64,000 nucleotides of DNA from Candidatus Wolfebacteria bacterium RIFOXYD12_FULL_48_21 (GTDB lineage Bacteria; Patescibacteriota; Minisyncoccia; UBA6257; UBA9933). The position numbers and the translations under genes were made by a program. Each line of letters opens with the position of its first letter. Position 1 is the stretch's first letter. The stretch is from contig MGIW01000005.1 of NCBI GenBank assembly GCA_001793945.1, positions 57,923 to 121,922 on the forward strand. Direction: 5' to 3'. Shown in pieces: positions 4,825-50,146 of this stretch. Under the pieces are notes generated by a model. That model did not search any database, had not been told where the DNA came from, and saw only the letters and a list, made by a program, of their open reading frames with translations.

Positions 4825-7800
4825 ATGTTAAAGGGAAGAAAAAAGTTTACTCCGAGCGAAGTGGAATCGGAAGTTTTGGAGTTTTGGAAACAAGACAAAA
4901 CATTCGAACGATCGGTCAAGAAACCTGCTCCGAAAGGGGAGTATGTATTTTACGATGGACCTCCGTTTGCGACCGGATTGCCCCACTATGGGCATATTTT
5001 GCAGAGCGTCATCAAGGATGTTGTTCCGCGATATCAGACCATGAACGGCAAGCGCGTGGAGCGTCGCTGGGGTTGGGATTGCCACGGATTGCCGGTTGAG
5101 AATTTGATCGAAAAGGAGCTGGGGCTTGAGACGAAAAAAGATATCGAAAATCTTGGTGTAGAGACCTTCAACGAAGCCGCGCGAGGCAGTGTTATGTCAT
5201 ATGCGCACGATTGGAAGAATATCATTCCGCGCATCGGCCGCTGGGTGGAAATGGAGAAAGACTACAAGACCATGGATGCGAGCTTTACTGAATCGGTAAT
5301 GTGGGTATTCAAGACGCTTTATGACAAAGGGCTGGTCTACGAAGGTCGCAAATCCATGCATGTGTGCCCGCGTTGCGAGACATCGTTGTCCAATTTTGAA
5401 GTTGCGTTGAACTATAAAGATATCGATGATATATCGACCTATGTAAAGTTTGCCGTTGCGGGAGAAAAAAATACCTACTTCATCGCATGGACGACCACGC
5501 CATGGACATTGCCGGGCAATGTGGCGCTGGCGATCAACGCAAAGGCGGAATATGTGACTGTTGAAGCAAGGACTGAAGCGGGTAAGGAGCGCTATATTCT
5601 GGCGAAGGATCGTCTTGCTATTATCGATGGGGAATATGTGATCGTAAAAACGGTAAAGGGCAAAGAGTTGGCCGGTACGGCATATGTGCCGCTGTTTGAT
5701 TACTATCAAAAAGGCGAATTGGAAAACCGCGAAAATGGCTGGAAGGTCTATGCGGCCGATTTTGTGACCATGGAAGACGGTTCGGGTATTGTGCATATCG
5801 CGCCGGCGTTCGGTGTCGACGATATGGAGGTAGCTCGCAAAGAAAAACTGCCATTTGTGCAGCATGTGGCCATGGATGGGCATTTCAAGCCGGAGGTGAA
5901 GGATTTCCCGGGATTGGCGGTAAAGCCGCGGGGAGACCACAAGGCGACCGATATAGAGGTCATCAAGTGGCTTGCGCACCATGGTAATTTGCTCAAGAAG
6001 CAAAAGCTGGTCCACTCATATCCGCATTGCTGGCGCTGTGAAACGCCGTTGCTGAACTACGCAACATCATCATGGTTCGTGGAAGTGACCAAGATCCGCG
6101 ATACAAAGAACGGGTTGGTGGAAAATAATAAAAAGGTCAACTGGATCCCAGGGCATATCAAAACGGGGCGTTTTGGCAACTGGGTGGCAGATGCGCGCGA
6201 TTGGGCCGTTTCCCGCTCGCGATTTTGGGGTGCACCCATTCCGGTATGGCGTTGCGATGAGTGTGGCGAGATAAAAGTAATGGGTTCCATTGCGGATATC
6301 AAAAAGAATGTGCCGAAATCGGGTAATGTTTATTTTACATTGCGCCATGGCGAGTCGCAGAATAACGCGCTCAATTTGGCAAGCTCAAATCCGAAGAACA
6401 CATATCATCTGACAAATAAAGGCAAGGCGCAGGTAGAAAAATCGGTTAAGGCATTCATAAAGCAGCTCAAGGGAAAGAAGATCGATCTGATCGTATCGTC
6501 TGATTTTGCACGGGCTCACGAAACGGCGGAACTCACCGCAAAGCTGCTCGGGTACGGAGCGAAGATCGTCATCGACAAGCGGTTGCGCGAGATCGACTGC
6601 GGCATTTTTGATGACAAGCCGATCGGTGAGTATCATGCGTATTTTGCATCGCTGGAAGAAAAGTTTATCAAGACCGCGCCGAAAGGAGAGAGTTTGAACG
6701 ATGTAAAAAAGCGCATAACGGAATTCGTATACGAAATTGATGCGAAGTATAAAGGGAAAAACATTTTGATCGTAAGTCATGAGTATCCCATTTGGGCGCT
6801 CTTTGCGGGTGTGCAAGGGTTCGATGGCAGAAAAGCGGTCGCCATGCGCAAGCCGAACAAGGACTTTATCGTCAATGCCGAAATAAAGAAATTGGATTTC
6901 AGCGTTATTCCGCATAACAAAAATTATGAACTGGATTTGCATCGCCCGTACATCGACCGGGTGGAATTGCAATGCGCAAAAGGGCACGCCATGAAGCGCG
7001 TACCGGATGTGTTTGATTGTTGGTTTGAGTCGGGTTCCATGCCGTATGGACAGGCACATTATCCGTTTGAAAATAAAAAGAAATTCGAAAAGAATTTCCC
7101 GGCAGAGTTTATTGCCGAAGCGGTTGACCAAACGCGCGGCTGGTTCTATACACTTATGGTTTTATCGACGGGCTTGTTCGGAAAGCCTGCATTTAAGAAT
7201 GTCATAACGACAGGATTGGTTCTTGCCGAAGACGGACAAAAGATGTCCAAAAAGCTGAAGAACTACCCTGATCCGATGACGATCGTGGACAAGTATGGCG
7301 CGGATGCGCTGCGCTTGTATTTGGTGTCATCGCCGATCGTTCGGGGAGAGGTGCTTAATTTTTCGGAAAAGGGTGTTGATGAATTGTACAAGAAGGTCAT
7401 TTCGCGCCTATGGAATGTATATAGTTTTTATGACATGTACGGGAAACAACTGATAACCAAAAACCAAAAACCAATAACGAAAAATGTGTTGGATACATGG
7501 ATGCTGGGTCGGCTTGATGAATTGATCGCCGAAACGACCGGCGCCATGAATAGCTATGAGCTTGACCGCGCGGTGCGCCCGATCGGTCAGTTTGTCGATG
7601 ACCTGTCGACATGGTATGTGCGTCGCTCCCGCCGCCGGTTCCAGAAGCCGGATGACAAAAAAGACTGGGAGCTCGCATCAAAAACGCTCGCGTATATTTT
7701 GTTTGAAACAAGCAAAGTAATGGCGCCGTTTACGCCGTTCTTTGCAGATGCATTGTATAAGTCGCTGAATACGAAAAAGAACGCATCCGTGCATTTGGAT

Positions 7801-25262: not shown

Positions 25263-25380
25263 TGTCATTCCGAGTGGAGCGGTACTCCGTGGAGTCGAGG
25301 AATCTGCCGTATAACATCAGATCCCTCTCCGCCGGCTGGCGGATCGGGATGACAATGCAAAGGGCTCGGGATGACAATGC
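25263..25380. repeat. Composite palindromic repeat element
   Basis: tgtcattccgagtggagcgg...ccgccggctggcggatcgggatgacaatgc. Confidence 0.8.
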
Positions 25381-38287: not shown

Positions 38288-39466
38288 ATGAAAGTTTTAT
38301 TTCCAAGAACACAAAAGATCAATCTTTCGCCGATAAAACAGATAGAACTGGAAGCGTCGCAGATCCCCGATGTCATTTCTTTGGCACAAGGCATTCCGTC
38401 GTTCGATACACCGGAGGTCGTCAAAAAGGCGGCCATCAAGGCGCTGAACAAAGGACTGGTGGCAAAGTATTCATTGACCTACGGATTGCCAGAATTGCGT
38501 GAGACCATCGAGGAAAAGCTTGCGGAGGAGGGAATGTACTACGATTTTGAAAATGAAATAGTGGTAACGGTAGGTTCAATCGAGGCGATTACGGCATCGT
38601 TGATCACGATCATAGACGGAAAAAAGAACGAAGTCGTTCTTTTTTCGCCGAGCTATGCATCGTACGCGGAAGCGGTGAAGGTTGCCGGGGGAAAACCGAT
38701 ATTTGTGAATCTCGATGAAAAAAACGGTTGGAGCGTAGACTTTGAAGCGTTGGCAAAAAAGATCACGGCCAACACGGCGGGGATTCTGTTTGCGAACCCG
38801 AACAACCCCACCGGAACGGTCATGGGGAAGGAAACGCTATTGCGCATAGCCGAGCTCGCGGAAAAGAAAAAGTGTTATATCATATCCGATGAGGTGTATA
38901 AGGATTTTTTGTACGGCGAATACGAGGGGGAGTCTTTGTTCTCCTTGGCGCAAGTTCCCGCATTGCGCAAGCGGGTCATTCGCGTATTTAGCTTATCGAA
39001 GGCATATGCCATGACCGGGTGGCGCATAGGGTTCGTGCATAGCGATGAAGAAGTGATTAAAGAAATCGTAAAGGTGCACGACGCGATGGTCACATGCGCA
39101 CCGGTCATCTCGCAATACGCAGCCATGGCCGCACTCGATTTCGCAGATAAAGATATTGAGCGATTTCGTGAAGAATATGCACGGCGCAGGGATATCACTA
39201 TGGCGCATCTTGATGATCTTTCGGAGTTCTTCTCTTATGAAAAGCCAAACGGAGCATACTTCGTATTTCCGAAACTGTTGCCCAAGCGGGATTCGTGGCA
39301 ATTCGCACATGACCTGCTCGAAAAGGCCGGGGTCGCCGTGGTGCCGGGGGTCGCATTTGGACCGAACGGTGAAAGCCATATTCGCATTTCATTCGGACGG
39401 ACGGAAAAGGATATTGATAGGGCGTTTGAGAGGATTAAAGCGTATTTTAGGAAAGAGGCAAAATGA
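38288..39466 (+). CDS. PLP-dependent aminotransferase, class I/II (aspartate aminotransferase-like)
   Basis: SLSKAYAMTGWRIGF (PLP-lysine region). NPNNPTG. Confidence 0.8.
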   Translation: MKVLFPRTQKINLSPIKQIELEASQIPDVISLAQGIPSFDTPEVVKKAAIKALNKGLVAKYSLTYGLPELRETIEEKLAEEGMYYDFENEIVVTVGSIEAITASLITIIDGKKNEVVLFSPSYASYAEAVKVAGGKPIFVNLDEKNGWSVDFEALAKKITANTAGILFANPNNPTGTVMGKETLLRIAELAEKKKCYIISDEVYKDFLYGEYEGESLFSLAQVPALRKRVIRVFSLSKAYAMTGWRIGFVHSDEEVIKEIVKVHDAMVTCAPVISQYAAMAALDFADKDIERFREEYARRRDITMAHLDDLSEFFSYEKPNGAYFVFPKLLPKRDSWQFAHDLLEKAGVAVVPGVAFGPNGESHIRISFGRTEKDIDRAFERIKAYFRKEAK

Positions 39467-39524
39467 GGAGGGTGTCATACCTACGCCTGCCTGCCAGTGG
39501 GCAGGAAAGCAGGGCGCATAGTAT

Positions 39525-39669
39525 TGTCATCCCGCCCTCCCCCCCCCGTATTGTCATCCCGAGCGCAATGCAATGGAGTCGAGGGATCTGATTTAAGAAA
39601 GCAGATTCCTCGACTGCACGGAGTACTGCGGAGTTTATCCTGAGCTTGTCGAACGGGCTCGGAATGACA
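39525..39669. repeat. Composite palindromic repeat cluster
   Basis: ttgtcatcccgccctccc...ttgtcatcccgagcg...tcctgagcttgtcgaacgggctcggaatgaca. The tcctgagcttgtcgaacgg segment is also found at 17345-17365. Confidence 0.8.
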
Positions 39670-39704
39670 GGGGAGTCAATGGAAGAGTTTGCCATATAAT
39701 CACA

Positions 39705-40526
39705 ATGAACACGATCGCAAAACGAACAACTCAATGTATCCTGAAATGGCTCGCAAAGGCACATATCGCCAAAACGAAGCCATATATTATCGTGATCGCG
39801 GGTACGACCAGACGCGCATGGATAAAGGAAGCGGTGGAGCGCGCGTTACTCGAGCGCAACACATTGGTCCGCTCGAGTAAAAAGCATTTCAATGCGGAAC
39901 TTGGGTTGCCGTTGTCTATTCTGGATCTTCCGTCAGGGGAGGGGAACGCGCGCAAATGGATTGGCGTGCTATGGCAGGCTTTCAAAAAGGTTGCCGATTT
40001 TAGAAAAAAGACGATAAGCAGGGAGCGAATAGAACACCTTGTGCTTGAGTTGGCGATTGATACTCCGCGAGACATGGATTATTTGTTGAGCATCGTAAAG
40101 CCGAACATGGTGGTCATGACGACGGTGACCATGGTCTATGCGGAACAATTCGAAACCTTGGACAATGTTGCGCATGAATTCGAGGCGCTCGCCGCAGCAC
40201 TCCCATGGAATGGCATATTGGTACTGAATGCCGATGACGATCGCATCCGTGAGCTTTCGCATGCATACAAGGGCAAAACGGTAACCTATGGTTTTGCCGA
40301 AGATGCGCAGTTCAGGGCGGTCGACGCCCGCAGAACGGAAACGGGCGAGGAGTTCCGCTTTGAGGTAAAGCGCAAGGAGCTCGAGTCGTATCGCAAAAAA
40401 ATCAACAGGTTCGGCAAGCATCATATCTATGCGGAGCTGGTTCGCGAAATTGTGCTTGACAACTTCAAGGCCCAACCAAAAGATTTCTTCAACCGCATGG
40501 CAAAGGGGTTGTTGGATAGGGGATAG
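39705..40526 (+). CDS. Mur ligase-like protein with degenerate P-loop (probable pseudoenzyme)
   Basis: IIVIAGTTRRAWIKEAVERAL aligns to ITGTNGKTTT with GKT replaced by RRA. ILVLNADDDRI matches the MurF-type motif. Confidence 0.35.
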   Translation: MNTIAKRTTQCILKWLAKAHIAKTKPYIIVIAGTTRRAWIKEAVERALLERNTLVRSSKKHFNAELGLPLSILDLPSGEGNARKWIGVLWQAFKKVADFRKKTISRERIEHLVLELAIDTPRDMDYLLSIVKPNMVVMTTVTMVYAEQFETLDNVAHEFEALAAALPWNGILVLNADDDRIRELSHAYKGKTVTYGFAEDAQFRAVDARRTETGEEFRFEVKRKELESYRKKINRFGKHHIYAELVREIVLDNFKAQPKDFFNRMAKGLLDRG

Positions 40527-40530
40527 AATG
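40473..40530 (+). repeat. 58-bp direct repeat, copy 1 (the 3' end of the Mur ligase-like CDS)
   Basis: caaccaaaagatttcttcaaccgcatggcaaaggggttgttggataggggatagaatg. Has one mismatch to copy 2 at 41451-41508. Confidence 0.85.
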
Positions 40531-40585
40531 ATGGAGGATAAAAAGTGGGCTGGATTTTAATGTGTTTTTATGATATAATATAAAA

Positions 40586-40816
40586 ATGAAAACGCTTGAT
40601 AAAAAATCGCTGTTTTGGGATGTTCGCGATATCGATCCGCAAAAAAATGCACGGTTTATAATCGAGCGGATCTTGGCGTTTGGCGACTTGGACGACTTCA
40701 AATGGTTGGTAGACAGGTACGGAGTTGAAAAGATTAAGGATGTATGCGCGCACAGCAAGGTGCTTGATAGAAAATCGGCATCGTTTTGGAACAATTATTT
40801 TCGTCGAAACGCATAA
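40586..40816 (+). CDS. Small hypothetical protein, candidate cognate partner (antitoxin?) of the downstream AbiEii-like gene
   Basis: 76 aa. Its stop lies 3 nt before the start of the next gene. Confidence 0.35.
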   Translation: MKTLDKKSLFWDVRDIDPQKNARFIIERILAFGDLDDFKWLVDRYGVEKIKDVCAHSKVLDRKSASFWNNYFRRNA

Positions 40817-40818
40817 TA

Positions 40819-41448
40819 ATGCATACAGAATCAATCCACGAAGAAACAAAGAAGGTATTGGAACTATTGTCGGCGAGCGGTGTCGTCGACGGTTTTTATT
40901 TAGCGGGCGGGACGGCGCTGGCAATACAGCTCGGGCATCGGGAATCGATCGATCTTGATTGGTTTTGCAGTGCAGGTTTTTCAAACGAACAGCTGATATC
41001 CCTCTTGGCGAAGCTGGGCGTTTTTTCGCTCACGAGCGAAGATGTTGATACGGTGCACGGTGTATTGAATGGAGTAAAAATAAGTTTTTTGAAATACGAC
41101 CATGAGCAACTGTTTCCATTTGTCGAGTTTGATGGCGTGCGAGTGGCAGACGAGCGCGATATAGCGGCGATGAAGATCAGCGCCATATCGTCACGCGGAA
41201 GCAAAAAGGATTTTATCGATCTGTATTTTCTGATGCAGAAATATCACATAACTGAATTGCTTGTGTTGTTTGAGCGGAAGCATAGCGGCATTCAATATAA
41301 CATGCTGCACATTTTGAAAAGCTTGGATTTTTTCGATAGCGCGGACGATGACCCGATGCCAATCATGCTCAAGCCGATTGAATGGCCAGAGGTTAAACGG
41401 GCGATCGAGCGGGAGGTGGACGGTTATATTGCAAAATATAGGAAGTAA
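40819..41448 (+). CDS. Nucleotidyltransferase of the AbiEii/AbiGii (DUF1814) toxin family
   Basis: GGTAL motif with RESIDLDWF (FYLAGGTALAIQLGHRESIDLDWF). About 210 aa. A start at the ATG at 40819 is preferred. Confidence 0.6.
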   Translation: MHTESIHEETKKVLELLSASGVVDGFYLAGGTALAIQLGHRESIDLDWFCSAGFSNEQLISLLAKLGVFSLTSEDVDTVHGVLNGVKISFLKYDHEQLFPFVEFDGVRVADERDIAAMKISAISSRGSKKDFIDLYFLMQKYHITELLVLFERKHSGIQYNMLHILKSLDFFDSADDDPMPIMLKPIEWPEVKRAIEREVDGYIAKYRK

Positions 41449-41450
41449 GA

Positions 41451-41508
41451 CAACCAAAAGATTTCTTCAACCGCATGGCAAAAGGGTTGTTGGATAGGGG
41501 ATAGAATG
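41451..41508 (+). repeat. 58-bp direct repeat, copy 2
   Basis: caaccaaaagatttcttcaaccgcatggcaaaagggttgttggataggggatagaatg. Confidence 0.85.
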
Positions 41509-41518
41509 GTATGGAATA

Positions 41519-41548
41519 AAAACGCCGCCGGATTTTCGGCGGCATTTT
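41519..41548 (+). terminator. Rho-independent terminator
   Basis: aaaaacgccgccggattttcggcggcatttt. Confidence 0.65.
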
Positions 41549-41561
41549 GCTGTGCGTCAAA

Positions 41562-41589
41562 AATAAAAGGTTTGACAAATACTATAAAT
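41562..41589 (+). promoter_or_regulatory. Sigma70-like promoter
   Basis: TTGACA, a 16-nt spacer, then CATAAT. Confidence 0.4.
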
Positions 41590-41655
41590 AATGCATAATT
41601 TATCCAGATAGCAAATTACAGGCCTTAAAAAATAAATAGCGGAAGGGAGAAGACC

Positions 41656-42243
41656 ATGACAGATGATCTCGGGAAGTTTATCAATGGGAGGGTTGTTTCA
41701 GAACTGGAGAAAAGGGGTGTGACCGAAGCGGATATCAACTTGGTTGTGGAAAAGGGTGAAGTATTGGCAGTCGACATATTCGTCGACGCCTTCTTGAAGT
41801 GCCTCCAGCGGGTTAAGGAGGCATTCCGTACTATGACCGGAGGCACCCGCACGACCGATGAGGTCGTTGCCGCCGGCAACTATGACTGGGTGAACTCCAT
41901 GGTCAACGGGGATAACTTCCCGATGCGGCCCATGCCCGATGGTCCCCGCGAGATAGTGTTCCTCGAATTCGATCACGATACGACATCCGAGGAAGCCCTT
42001 GCGGAAGCGGAGCGACAAGGGCTTGAGCGTCCTCTGTACGAAGACGCACTGTTTTTCGGAGAACAGCATCCCGAAGAACAGCGCAAAGACCCGATCGTAT
42101 TCCTGCACGAACCGTGGCAGGACCCGTGCGGCAACCTGAGCGTGCTGGTACTCGACTGCGGTGACAGGTACCGCTACCTGCGCCTGGGCTACTTCGGCGA
42201 CAGTTGGGATCGGCGGTGTCGGTTCGCGTTCGTCCGAAAGTAA
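41656..42243 (+). CDS. Hypothetical protein (GC-rich, likely foreign)
   Basis: 195-aa ORF at about 60% GC, with SD gggaga. Followed by a terminator at 42301-42329. Confidence 0.35.
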   Translation: MTDDLGKFINGRVVSELEKRGVTEADINLVVEKGEVLAVDIFVDAFLKCLQRVKEAFRTMTGGTRTTDEVVAAGNYDWVNSMVNGDNFPMRPMPDGPREIVFLEFDHDTTSEEALAEAERQGLERPLYEDALFFGEQHPEEQRKDPIVFLHEPWQDPCGNLSVLVLDCGDRYRYLRLGYFGDSWDRRCRFAFVRK

Positions 42244-42300
42244 CTTGGATTCTGAGAATCTTGTGCCTTGTCGGGCACTTGGACCCTTGGAATCTTTCTA

Positions 42301-42329
42301 CGGCCCTCGCTATGCGAGGGCCTTTTTTG
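42301..42329 (+). terminator. Rho-independent terminator
   Basis: cggccctcgctatgcgagggcctttttt. Confidence 0.65.
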
Positions 42330-42390
42330 TTAGAGAGCAAATATTTTTTGTATTATTGCACAATTATACTATATTTAGTACAATTAAATC

Positions 42391-43230
42391 ATGGGAAGAA
42401 AAATGGTATCCATTTCAATAGAGAAATTAAGGGAACTGTATATCGATAAATACTTATCATCCTATGAAATCGGGGAGCAATTTAATTGTTCGGATGCTAC
42501 CATTAGAAATAAATTAAAAGAGGCGGGAATCAAATTGCGATCAGGCGGTAGGAAAAAGTTCAAATATAAAAAATATTCCTTCGCGGGGAATGATACGATA
42601 AAGGCATATATGGTTGGGTTCAGAATCGGAGATCTAAATGTATATCGGCCGAGCGTCAATTCGAGAATATTAGTGATAAGGTGTCATACGACCATATTGC
42701 ATCAAGTAGATGTTATAAAATTTTTGTTTGGTAAATATGGGAAAGTAGAGGATGCAATTGGGAAAACTGGATCATATCATGTTAATGTTTATCTGGACCA
42801 GTCATTCGATTTTTTAGTGAGTAAAACAGAAATACCCCAATGGATAAAGGAGGGGGATTCTGCCGTTAAGTGGTCATTTATAGCGGGGTATGTAGACGCC
42901 GAAGGGTCTTTTAAGCTAAATCAAGGCAAGGGGCGATTTAAGATAGATGCGTACGATTACTTTATTTTGGAATGGATTAATGAATTTTTGCAAAATGAGC
43001 AGATCAATGGTAAGTTTAGGCGAATATGCGAGAAGGGGGAGCTTAAGTATGCATCCTATGTATGGAAGGATGACCTATGGAGATTGGAAGTAAATTCTGC
43101 GCATTGCTTGGAGCGGTTTATACAAGGGATGATGCCATATCTCTTACATGTCGATAGAATAAAAGATGCTAAAATAGTATTAGAGAATATCAATGAACGA
43201 AAAAAACGGGGGACAATTAAGTCATATTAG
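42391..43230 (+). CDS. Free-standing double-motif LAGLIDADG homing endonuclease-like protein with N-terminal HTH
   Basis: Motif 1 YMVGFRIGDLNV. Motif 2 FIAGYVDAEGSF. N-terminal HTH LRELYIDKYLSSYEIGEQFNCSDATIRNKLKEAG. An AT-rich gene. Confidence 0.65.
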   Translation: MGRKMVSISIEKLRELYIDKYLSSYEIGEQFNCSDATIRNKLKEAGIKLRSGGRKKFKYKKYSFAGNDTIKAYMVGFRIGDLNVYRPSVNSRILVIRCHTTILHQVDVIKFLFGKYGKVEDAIGKTGSYHVNVYLDQSFDFLVSKTEIPQWIKEGDSAVKWSFIAGYVDAEGSFKLNQGKGRFKIDAYDYFILEWINEFLQNEQINGKFRRICEKGELKYASYVWKDDLWRLEVNSAHCLERFIQGMMPYLLHVDRIKDAKIVLENINERKKRGTIKSY

Positions 43231-45013
43231 AAACTTTGCGATAATAGCCCACATAGATGCGGGAAAGTCCACATTGGCTGACCGTCTATTGGAGATTACC
43301 AAGACCGTGGAAGTGCGCGACATGAAGGCGCAATTTTTGGATCAAATGGATCTCGAGCGTGAGCGGGGCATTACTATAAAAATGGCTCCGGTGCGCATGG
43401 ACTATGTGAGCCAACGCGACGGAAAGAAATACATATTGAATCTTATAGACACGCCGGGTCACCCCGACTTTGCATATGAGGTATCGCGCGCGTTTAAGGC
43501 GGTAGAGGGCGTCATTTTGTTGGTGGATGCGACGCAGGGCATACAGGCGCAGACCTTGGCGAATTTTGAAATGGCAAAAAAGGCGGGCGTCAAAGTGATC
43601 GGTGCGTTGAACAAGGTAGACATGAACCCGCCGCAGCTCGAGACGGTATTACTTGAAACTGCGCAGCTGTTGGATTGTCCGCTTGAAGATATATTCAGAA
43701 TATCGGGAAAAACCGGCGCGGGCGTGCAGGAACTGCTCGAAGAAGTGATCGTGAAACTTCCGCCTCCGAAGGAGTGGGAACAAGGATCGAAAGAACAAAA
43801 GGCAGAATCCACGGCAGGGAGGGCGGCGCTGGTGTTTGATTCGGTGTACGACGACCACAAGGGCATCATCGCATTCGTGCGGGTGTTTCATGGCGAGTTT
43901 GCGGGCAACCAAGATACAAAACTGGTGGCGACGAATGTGAAAATAAAAACAAAGGAGGTCGGCTACTTCCAGCCGAAAATGAAGGCATCGCCGAAGATAA
44001 CAAAAGGGGAGATTGGTTACATCGCGACCGGCATCAAGGATCCGGATAAATTGAAGATCGGCGATACGATCGGCGACACCGATTTGGGAGGATATCAGGA
44101 ACCGCAACCGCGGGTATTTGTTTCCTTCTTCCCGGAAGATGGTAGCGAATATGAAGAACTGAAAAAATCGTTTCAAAAATTGAAATTGACCGACCCGGCA
44201 CTTAAGACCGACCCGGATTACAACGATGTATTGGGCCGAGGATTTAAAGTTGGCTTTTTGGGCAAGTTGCATTTTGAGATCATTTCGCAGCGATTGGAGC
44301 AGGATTTTGACATGAGTACGGTAAACAGCTTCCCGTCGGTGGCGTACAAAATAAAGAAGCCGCATGGAAAGGAATTGGTGGTGATAGAAAACCCGCAGGA
44401 CCTGCCGGCGGAATATGACGAAATATGGGAGCCGATGATCGAGCTGGAGATATTGGCGCCCACGGTCTATTTGGGGCCGATCATGAAGCTAAAAGAGATG
44501 TTTCGCATGGGAGAAATGCAGACGACCAACATGGTCGATCGCGTGCTCATCAAAACGCGCATGCCGCTCATGGAATTGATATCCGACTTCGACGACCAGC
44601 TGAAATCGCTGACCCACGGGTTTGCGTCATTTAGTTACGAAATGTCCGAATACCAAAAGGCGGACCTTGCGCGCATCGATGTGATGGTTGCAAAGGATAT
44701 GGTGGTCGGCTTGTCGCGCATTTTGCCAAAAAAAGACATAGAATACGAGGCACGACAAATGGCGATACGCTTGAAGGATCTTTTACCGCAACAACAGTTT
44801 GCGCAGGCTATTCAGATCACAACGGGAGCGAAAGTCATCGCGCGCGAAACGATAGCGCCGATGCGCAAGGATGTGACGGGGTATTTGTACGGTGGCGACA
44901 GAACGCGCAAAATGAAACTGTGGAAAAAGCAGAAAGAAGGAAAGAAACGGTTGCTTTCCATGGCAAAGGTAAATGTATCCGCCGATGTGTTCAAGGAACT
45001 GCTGAAGAAGTGA
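43193..45013 (+). CDS. lepA: Translation elongation factor 4 (LepA)
   Basis: NFAIIAHIDAGKSTL G1 motif. DTPGH. NKVD. About 600 aa, with a LepA-specific C-terminal domain. Confidence 0.9.
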   Translation: MNEKNGGQLSHIRNFAIIAHIDAGKSTLADRLLEITKTVEVRDMKAQFLDQMDLERERGITIKMAPVRMDYVSQRDGKKYILNLIDTPGHPDFAYEVSRAFKAVEGVILLVDATQGIQAQTLANFEMAKKAGVKVIGALNKVDMNPPQLETVLLETAQLLDCPLEDIFRISGKTGAGVQELLEEVIVKLPPPKEWEQGSKEQKAESTAGRAALVFDSVYDDHKGIIAFVRVFHGEFAGNQDTKLVATNVKIKTKEVGYFQPKMKASPKITKGEIGYIATGIKDPDKLKIGDTIGDTDLGGYQEPQPRVFVSFFPEDGSEYEELKKSFQKLKLTDPALKTDPDYNDVLGRGFKVGFLGKLHFEIISQRLEQDFDMSTVNSFPSVAYKIKKPHGKELVVIENPQDLPAEYDEIWEPMIELEILAPTVYLGPIMKLKEMFRMGEMQTTNMVDRVLIKTRMPLMELISDFDDQLKSLTHGFASFSYEMSEYQKADLARIDVMVAKDMVVGLSRILPKKDIEYEARQMAIRLKDLLPQQQFAQAIQITTGAKVIARETIAPMRKDVTGYLYGGDRTRKMKLWKKQKEGKKRLLSMAKVNVSADVFKELLKK

Positions 45014-49895: not shown

Positions 49896-50146
49896 AGGTT
49901 TTTAGTATAGCGGAAAATGGTCATTTTGCAAATCGAATAATGGTGTGTAAGCGGGGAATATAAGGAATTGTCATTCCGACCGTATCCGTCAGCTGACGGA
50001 GGAGTGGAGGAATCTGCAGGCGGGCTCAGATCCCTTTGTAGTCCATTTGGCAGACTCAAGGCATGGCTTCCCCAGATGATAGAAATGGTAGTTTTAAATT
50101 CGTTGTGGGTTGTAGGTTGTCGGTCGTTGGTTTACAATTGGGTAAT

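Follow-up and report, generated by a model that had tools for sequence, protein, structure and literature searches.

Target-duplicating insertion of a putative nucleotidyltransferase toxin cassette behind a Mur-ligase-like gene in Wolfebacteria

How does a two-gene cassette without any mobility gene come to lie at the end of a resident gene? For many years, descriptions of toxin-antitoxin (TA) loci have presented them as cassettes that pass from genome to genome, and for most of them we know of no mechanism of movement. The question is raised by a locus in a 64,000-nt stretch of DNA (the window; contig MGIW01000005.1, positions 57,923 to 121,922) from the Candidatus Wolfebacteria genome RIFOXYD12_FULL_48_21 (GCA_001793945.1), which derives from Rifle groundwater. 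In this locus, the end of a gene for a Mur-ligase-like protein recurs behind two small genes, which encode a 76-aa protein of the family DUF6922 and an AbiEii/MenT-like (DUF1814) nucleotidyltransferase (NTase). Our comparisons showed a duplicative insertion of this pair, later gene conversion between the two gene ends, and a tendency of the whole cassette family to leave the same footprint. Taken as a whole, the locus is probably explained by duplicative insertion of a TA-type pair at a gene end, followed by gene conversion.

A repeat scan of the window returned one two-copy direct repeat of 86 nt, with 87% identity and a spacing of 978 nt (Table 1). Its first 58 nt (part A) were identical at 57 positions, which bore out the first-pass annotation of this sequence, where a 58-bp repeat had been placed at the Mur-ligase gene end and after the NTase stop. 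The sole mismatch, AAG to AAA, is a synonymous Lys codon in the Mur-ligase frame, and the last 54 nt of the Mur-ligase-like gene plus its stop codon lie within copy 1. The annotation had let the similarity run on for about 12 bp, and it was found to continue for 28 nt (part B, 18/28 identical), stopping at GGATTTT in the loop of a terminator hairpin. In copy 2 this GGATTTT forms the left arm and loop of the hairpin, which has 8 pairs, 7 of them G-C, and a T-run; copy 2 together with the hairpin folded with z = -1.96. Part B of copy 1 has diverged and corresponds to the spacer plus the left arm and loop of the terminator; the right arm is missing, and the hairpin was absent from the fold of copy 1. 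The repeat alone had no predicted structure (fold z = +1.5) and no Rfam match, and there was no third copy in the window. The ungapped repeat score was 55, while the best null comparisons, with unrelated or reversed flanks, reached 14-16. Between the copies lie exactly two genes, the 76-aa open reading frame (ORF) and the GGTAL-motif NTase, as had been claimed; the spacer between stop and start is 2 nt (TAA TA ATG) and not 3 nt.

More than 20 independent contigs, built by different assemblers from different samples, contained the repeat, and therefore an assembly artefact, in which the NTase stop would be joined falsely to mid-gene sequence, was ruled out; a like footprint in the complete genome L113 (CP011210) also countered it. 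Truncation of the Mur-ligase-like gene by the insertion was ruled out as well. A length of about 270 aa is usual for this family in Patescibacteria, where dozens of relatives have 255-280 aa, the middle-domain-only form is normal, and the protein end is unchanged.

Table 1. Positions of the features of the locus (window coordinates unless a locus is named).
Feature	Position	Strand	Remarks
Mur-ligase-like gene, 273 aa, middle domain only	39705-40526	+	Pfam Mur_ligase_M, 2.4e-17
Repeat copy 1	40473-40558	+	part A 40473-40530, gene end; part B 40531-40558
Cassette-borne promoter region	40559-40585	+	27 nt unique to insert
DUF6922 protein, 76 aa, putative antitoxin	40586-40816	+	Pfam PF21956
AbiEii/MenT-like (DUF1814) NTase, 209 aa, putative toxin, GGTAL motif	40819-41448	+	Pfam, PADLOC
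Repeat copy 2	41451-41536	+	part A 41451-41508; begins 2 nt after NTase stop; runs into intact terminator
Intrinsic terminator of resident operon, now 3' of cassette	41524-41543	+	terminator scan
Strong promoter TTGACA-16-CATAAT	41572-41599		
195-aa ORF, no family	41656-42243		
Terminator	42302-42322		
Helix-turn-helix + LAGLIDADG_3 ORF, 279 aa	42391-43230		overlaps lepA start by 38 nt
Related dispersed MITE-like copies	2977-2994; 25341-25380 (-); 49965-49982		
Helix-turn-helix-DUF6922 fusions	L095 2508-3026; L074 2505-3026; L069 2469-3011; L090 2486-2998		

The first-pass annotation had proposed that related genomes be searched for an empty site, in which the Mur-ligase-like gene is followed directly by the terminator. 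Such sites were found in relatives whose Mur-ligase proteins were 88% (L017), 85% (L019), and 78% (L020-L027) identical to that of the window. The gene order was aminotransferase, Mur-ligase-like gene, terminator, and lepA, with 48-80 nt between the last two genes, and in four relatives the terminator came right after the stop codon. In L017, AAAAACCGCTGGATTTCCAGCGGTTTTT stood immediately 3' of the Mur-ligase stop codon, and homologous hairpins occupied this position in L017, L020, and L024. The layout of copy 2 (gene end, short spacer, AAAAA, hairpin) was the same as that of the empty sites L017 and L024, and therefore copy 2 with its terminator is the original gene end, displaced and no longer translated; a 2-nt deletion in the window copy disrupts its reading frame. 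The empty sites thus demonstrated that the window cassette is an insertion at the end of a resident gene, with the target duplicated, as the annotation had suspected.

The inserted unit is 40559-41450, 892 bp in length, and comprises an extended -10 promoter, the DUF6922 gene, and the NTase gene. The promoter has the extended -10 box TGATATAAT (40571-40579), which ends 6 nt 5' of the ATG; the consensus scan missed it because the -35 box is poor. A TGnTATAAT box just 5' of the ATG was also seen in L034, L061, L054, L042, L060, L094, L103, and L111. The unit entered between the Mur-ligase stop codon and the terminator loop, with about 86 nt of target duplicated. Copy 1 now ends the resident gene, with the right arm of the terminator lost, and since its hairpin is incomplete, transcription of the resident operon would be expected to continue through the cassette as far as the old terminator. 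The repeats would also offer a route to precise excision.

Compared with the empty relatives, the window has four extra genes, namely the cassette pair, the 195-aa ORF, and the LAGLIDADG/helix-turn-helix ORF. The latter two (41656-43230) had been overlooked in the annotation, which is also extended here by the run of the duplication into the terminator and by the footprint in other phyla. The same four-gene arrangement was found in a sister species (RIFOXYB2_FULL_49_7; L028-L033 and L115) with a repeat of its own (54/56). Core genes of this species were 84-93.5% identical to those of the window at the nucleotide level, while the cassette with its promoter was more alike between the two (95-100%). 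In part A, the two copies differed at 1/54 positions within the window, while between the genomes 4/54 positions differed in copy 1 and about 8/54 in copy 2; lineage-specific changes (GGGTTG...GATAG vs GGGCTG...GGTGA) were found in both copies. Part B showed 0/30 differences between the copies 1 of the two species and 10-16/30 between copy 1 and copy 2. Part A thus groups by genome and part B by copy, which indicates that the duplication predates the species split and that the coding part A was homogenised by gene conversion thereafter. Gene conversion has since kept the coding parts near-identical, while the non-coding parts diverged. The copy-2 variant AAA was seen in copy 1 of one strain (L008/L016).

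A third lineage, L034, whose Mur-ligase protein is 83% identical, carries the Mur-ligase-like gene, DUF6922, NTase, terminator, and lepA without the other two genes. At first sight it shows the two genes in synteny without flanking repeats, which the annotation had named as a result that would speak against its reading. This holds only in appearance, since copy 2 of L034 is decayed, yet recognisable, and has two substitutions in common with copy 2 of L028; such decay is a sign of age and does not mean that a duplication was lacking. The insertion is older than the split of the two Wolfebacteria species, and probably than that of this third lineage too. A metagenome scan for further Wolfebacteria loci yielded few new close relatives. 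In the contig L009 (about 5400-5693), the sequence was of window type at each diagnostic site until the NTase 3' end and then of sister-species type through copy 2; such a switch would come either from natural recombination inside the cassette or from a contig end that is chimeric.

A genome scan for the NTase clade gave 80 loci in Patescibacteria, Acidobacteriota, Gemmatimonadota, Bacteroidota, Planctomycetota, Desulfobacterota, and others. From each side of the cassettes 450 nt were compared, and pseudo-cassettes of equal length shifted within the same loci served as controls. An ungapped repeat score of at least 20 was reached by 13/70 real cassettes vs 1/123 pseudo-cassettes (Fisher p = 8.6e-6), and with gapped scoring the numbers were 20/73 vs 4/119 (p = 1.6e-6). 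The right copy began -7 to +16 nt from the toxin stop in 9/20 of these (binomial p = 1.3e-6), compared with +2 in the window. A general self-repeat scan showed dispersed repeats resembling miniature inverted-repeat transposable elements (MITEs) to be common in these genomes, so only repeats of flanking host-gene sequence were counted as clear duplications.

The duplications were of about 16-300 nt and of differing host sequences. The duplicated sequence in the Beckwithbacteria genome L113 was the final 36 nt of a 598-aa gene; in L054 it was the first 50 nt of a downstream metal-binding gene; in L061 50 nt near the end of an upstream 432-aa gene, for which no search gave a product; in L095 and L057 57 nt and 54 nt, respectively; and in L084 about 300 nt of an upstream 322-aa gene. 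The duplication in L060 ends in a terminator hairpin, like that of the window. Homology between related cassettes in unrelated contexts began 27-45 nt 5' of the small gene and ended within about 4 nt of the toxin stop in most of about 8 pairs, and these limits agree with the insert boundaries deduced from the duplications. The cassette family is very large and behaves as a discrete unit, from promoter to toxin stop codon. Phage carriage was searched for with little result: there was no relative in IMG/VR, no PHROG match, and only two weak unannotated matches to GenBank phages. Our literature search for AbiEii in Patescibacteria, or for TA cassettes with target duplications, found nothing relevant.

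Like a transposable element, the cassette is a discrete insert bounded by a direct duplication of its target. Unlike one, it has no transposase and no bracketing inverted repeat, and the duplications of about 16-300 nt differ from the fixed 2-15 bp stagger of transposases. Pfam searches of the aminotransferase-lepA interval found no transposase, integrase, or any recombinase domain between the repeats or adjoining them, and the repeat scan of the region reported no inverted repeat bracketing the cassette. The terminal inverted repeats and the fixed-length duplication of a transposon or insertion sequence were thus as absent as its transposase, and neither an adjacent integrase nor one att core common to every site, as a site-specific integrative element would have, was found. 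This content, together with the variable duplication length, rules out a transposase, an integrase, and a fixed stagger. We favour insertion via host processes, in which illegitimate or microhomology-mediated joining with fill-in, or template switching, would place the unit near hairpins and gene ends, and selection would keep only those insertions that preserve the neighbouring gene.

We then turn to what the cassette encodes. The NTase matched Pfam AbiEii (PF08843) with 54.8 bits (cut-off 22.5, E = 1.7e-14) and 12 PADLOC AbiEii models, and no NCBIfam model. The motifs of a Pol-beta-type enzyme were all present, namely GG[ST], the [ST]xDxD metal site, the catalytic Lys (KxxAxxxR), and DxxD. 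In an alignment of 30 homologues, G30, G31, T32, S43, D45, D47, K119, A122, R126, D131, and D134 were invariant, and S43-D45-D47, K119, and D131/D134 have counterparts in T39, D41xD43, K137, and D149/D152 of MenT1. T39 of MenT1 and S78 of MenT3 are the sites of antitoxin-induced autophosphorylation (PMC11375011). The AlphaFold model of the NTase (predicted local distance difference test, pLDDT, 94.5) showed the bi-lobed NTase fold of MenT and JHP933. Foldseek matched it to JHP933 (E = 4e-6), MenT4 (E = 1.3e-4), and MenT1 (E = 1.6e-4) with template modelling (TM) scores of 0.5-0.6, and ANT(2'')-Ia was also among the best fold matches in the PDB. Relatives of the NTase numbered more than 5,500 at E <= 1e-5; most had about 205 aa, and most came from Patescibacteria. 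Neither protein gave a match when its sequence was searched against the PDB, singly or by profile, and because of this the link of the NTase to MenT is drawn from Pfam, motifs, and fold.

The 76-aa partner had been proposed for a profile search against AbiEi_4 and MNT-type antitoxins. The search found DUF6922 instead (PF21956, 58.3 bits, cut-off 27, E = 5e-16) and no AbiEi family in Pfam or PADLOC, and no cognate AbiEi of the COG5340 type, with a winged helix-turn-helix (HTH) and a C-terminal domain, lay upstream of the NTase. The annotation's idea of a distinct partner type stood in that the protein is not AbiEi; against its novelty, the family is catalogued in Pfam, and a small non-AbiEi antitoxin has a precedent in MenA1, the 68-aa antitoxin of a DUF1814 toxin (PMC10435456). 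DUF6922 counted 689 cluster representatives at E <= 1e-3. A DUF6922 homologue was found directly 5' of the NTase and on the same strand in 80/80 loci, and a Pfam check of partners from other loci confirmed 5/6 of those checked. Small partners come in two lengths, of about 76 aa and of about 95 aa, the longer form having a tail that overlaps the start of the toxin. An XRE-type HTH (HTH_3/HTH_31) is joined to DUF6922 in partners of 170-180 aa at four loci, of which two belong to Thermoanaerobaculia, one to another member of Acidobacteriota, and one to Gemmatimonadota, and single-chain fusions of AbiEi_2 with DUF6922 (439 aa) and of DUF6922 with AbiEii (290 aa) were seen in proteins P0314 and P0337. 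Judged from the domain order, these fusions have the architecture expected of an antitoxin domain. The predicted DUF6922 structure has four helices (pLDDT 77.5) and gave no significant match to solved structures.

The pair therefore has the general make-up of a type II-like TA system, with small, coupled, co-oriented genes, a constant partner, and DNA-binding variants. RefSeq/PGAP names for such partners are hypothetical protein or helix-turn-helix regulator, and because a literature search for DUF6922 found nothing, we regard DUF6922 as a probable uncharacterised antitoxin that is not AbiEi. Judged by homology, the pair is most likely a TA or abortive-infection module. Its NTase would add nucleotides to tRNA 3' ends and so halt translation, as MenT1, MenT3, and MenT4 do, and DUF6922 would neutralise it by binding, possibly via autophosphorylation of Ser43, the equivalent of MenT1 T39 and MenT3 S78. 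Second DUF6922 matches were observed near the first cassette in L043 (3654-3911, starting 30 nt after the toxin stop), L091 (727-1011 and 1163-1456), and L073 (725-982), which suggests tandem or neighbouring cassettes.

Among known systems, MenAT1 of Mycobacterium tuberculosis is alike in its short DUF1814-type NTase (about 190-210 aa) with the [ST]-x-D-x-D loop, catalytic Lys, and D-x-x-D, and in a very small helical partner, not of AbiEi/COG5340 type, encoded directly upstream (PMC10435456, PMC11375011). It differs in that the window NTase has no detectable sequence similarity to MenT1 even by profile, the likeness being one of fold (TM about 0.5), and in that the four-helix DUF6922 model did not match MenA1 (8an5), to which no homology was found. 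With AbiE (AbiEi/AbiEii, a type IV TA or abortive-infection system) the pair shares the AbiEii toxin, as assigned by Pfam and PADLOC, and the two-gene operon with the partner upstream. However, the window toxin is about 80 aa shorter than classical AbiEii, and its partner is not AbiEi and has no winged HTH plus C-terminal neutralising domain; DUF6922 is nevertheless fused to AbiEi_2 in one distant protein. The best structural match was JHP933, a DUF1814 NTase of the Helicobacter pylori plasticity zone, which is of similar size (TM 0.54-0.59), although the sequence identity is 16%.

A pair that is no TA system at all, in which the NTase would be a non-toxic modifier of RNA or small molecules and DUF6922 its specificity or regulatory subunit, serving housekeeping or defence signalling, appears unlikely to us. 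The NTase fold also matches poly(A) polymerases besides the aminoglycoside-type ANT(2'')-Ia, the family is extremely common in the reduced genomes of Patescibacteria, which would be unusual for pure addiction modules, and the fused DUF6922-AbiEii proteins would suit such a role. Against this, Pfam and PADLOC both assign the NTase to AbiEii, and the MenT residues Ser-x-Asp-x-Asp, Lys, and Asp-x-x-Asp are invariant. The upstream, tightly coupled partner, often fused to an XRE HTH or AbiEi_2, is standard antitoxin architecture, and selfish or defence cassettes typically show a distribution like this one, which is patchy and of insertion type.

As to the way in which the repeat arose, a Campbell-type single crossover has also to be weighed, in which a circularised donor fragment, consisting of a cassette and the neighbouring gene end, would have been integrated in a RecA-dependent manner, so that part B of copy 1 would stem from the donor. 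Patescibacteria are thought to take up DNA, and several features of the locus fit such an origin: the uneven identity of the repeat, high in part A and low in part B; the patchy occupancy among close lineages; the cassette and promoter being closer between the two species than the core genes; and the GCTGGATTT in part B of copy 1, which resembles the terminators of L017, L024, and L034 and not the window's own GCCGGATTT. However, the T in part B may equally be ancestral, with the U-G-paired hairpin of L034 as a compensatory intermediate. A crossover of this kind only copies an existing arrangement to the same site, and explains neither the first insertion nor the duplications at unrelated sites in other phyla; moreover, a fragment broken at random would not give junctions that lie 2-16 nt past the stop in many loci. 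Campbell-type integration can spread an existing arrangement within a genus, but as the origin of this one we hold it to be improbable.

The locus also recalls the minimal mobile elements of Neisseria, in which alternative gene cassettes between conserved flanking genes are moved by transformation and homologous recombination. Similarly, close lineages differ in what lies between the Mur-ligase-like gene and lepA, which is nothing, the two-gene cassette, or this cassette with two further genes; the two-gene cassette has no mobility gene, and the longest form of the interval includes the LAGLIDADG-like ORF. Minimal mobile elements are, however, not defined by target duplications, whereas the window cassette is bracketed by one of 86 nt and its relatives elsewhere likewise.

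Duplicative insertion by host processes may be set against a dedicated one, which we put forward only as a speculative idea with a small chance of being right. The cassette would then be a recombinase-free mobile unit with defined ends, whose own mechanism makes the long variable duplications. The NTase or its partner might participate, for example by tailing or filling in staggered breaks close to hairpins and gene ends, and the repeats would allow a reversible excision that the toxin penalises.

Tyrosine-recombinase elements classically integrate into gene 3' ends and supply a replacement end, and the repeat does sit exactly at a gene end. That the two copies are attL and attR of a site-specific element targeting the Mur-ligase 3' end, with its integrase and most of its body lost, is very improbable all the same, given the absence of any recombinase domain; a promoter and two genes make up the whole insert, here as at unrelated sites, the content in L034 is equally minimal, and the duplications at other cassettes differ in sequence and length, which is unexpected of a site-specific system. 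Finally, that copy 2 is kept by a function of its own, as a 3' untranslated element or binding site, and not by gene conversion, is hardly credible: its conservation within the genome is far above neutral expectation across a species divergence of 6-10%, but both copies differ between the species at the same positions, which points to copying and not to constraint, and copy 2 is decayed in L034, is broken in frame, and has no structure beyond the terminator and no Rfam match.

Several observations weigh against duplicative insertion of a TA-type cassette with defined limits. About 73% of the loci show no flanking repeat, and the plasmid copies, which are distant (25-36% identity), had one in 0/7 cases; distant members are carried by plasmids of Bacteroides or Hymenobacter. 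The repeats in L062, L071/72, L108, L045, and L036 look dispersed or simple and not like target duplications, and a more rapid decay of the non-coding flanks, with no defined mobile end, could account for the sharp limits of the cassettes. Measured against the window, the empty L017 and L019 are no more distant than the cassette-bearing L034, so the history needs cassette losses or lateral exchange; the cassette was either lost via recombination between the repeats, which restores a perfect empty site, or moved by homologous exchange. On the side of function, the link to MenT is made through Pfam, motifs, and a modelled fold (TM about 0.5-0.6) with no PDB sequence match, the DUF6922 model is only moderately confident, was built from nine sequences, and resembles nothing solved, and the TA role of this clade is argued from homology.

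A second insertion at the same site, 41560-43230, was absent from all empty relatives and from L034, and no flanking repeat was found for it. Between the two species its LAGLIDADG ORF was 97% identical and the 195-aa ORF only 85%; an interpretation of the two 195-aa ORFs as paralogues was rejected. In the adjoining lepA (5' end 43193-43280), the protein starts with MNEKNGGQLSHIRNF in the window and sister species vs MTGHIRNF in relatives, and its G1 motif is DAGKST instead of DHGKST, also in L034. This LepA variant could be an allele that resists cleavage and is linked to the homing-endonuclease-like gene next to it, which is free-standing.

On the other side of the locus, the aminotransferase and Mur-ligase genes, which in relatives adjoin or overlap each other, are kept apart by a structured MITE-like element (39467-39704; fold z = -3.07) with the terminal inverted repeats TGTCATCCCGAGC ... 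GCTCGGAATGACA; this element had 6 matches in the window vs 0.04 expected. The class I/II aminotransferase and the 270-aa protein consisting of a Mur-ligase middle domain only (window 38288-40526; L116-L181) form a conserved adjacent pair across Parcubacteria, found in more than 60 loci with the genes often overlapping, which suggests that the two share a function, as yet undescribed, that is distinct from that of canonical MurF. The Mur-ligase-like gene is directly followed by small GIY-YIG-like genes in other Parcubacteria (L133 and L158). The repeats there (L133, 2853-2893/4072-4112; L158, 2796-2842/3220-3265) were considered as insertion footprints and rejected as dispersed in-frame or hairpin repeat elements; their SVNQRSNQR-type motif also occurs inside dnaG.

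The Wolfebacteria locus is an unusually clean case, since the filled site can be set beside several empty ones, a sister species, and an old version in decay. That the same footprint surrounds a very large, unstudied clade of MenT/AbiEii-like NTases in many phyla makes the route of insertion directly testable. The AbiEii/MenT kind is itself already known and its partner family is catalogued, though uncharacterised, and the recurring long target duplications are the most interesting aspect of the finding. DUF6922 gains a probable role as the cognate antitoxin, and this partner family is abundant in Patescibacteria, whose defence and addiction systems are poorly known. The footprint around related cassettes hints at how such cassettes move.

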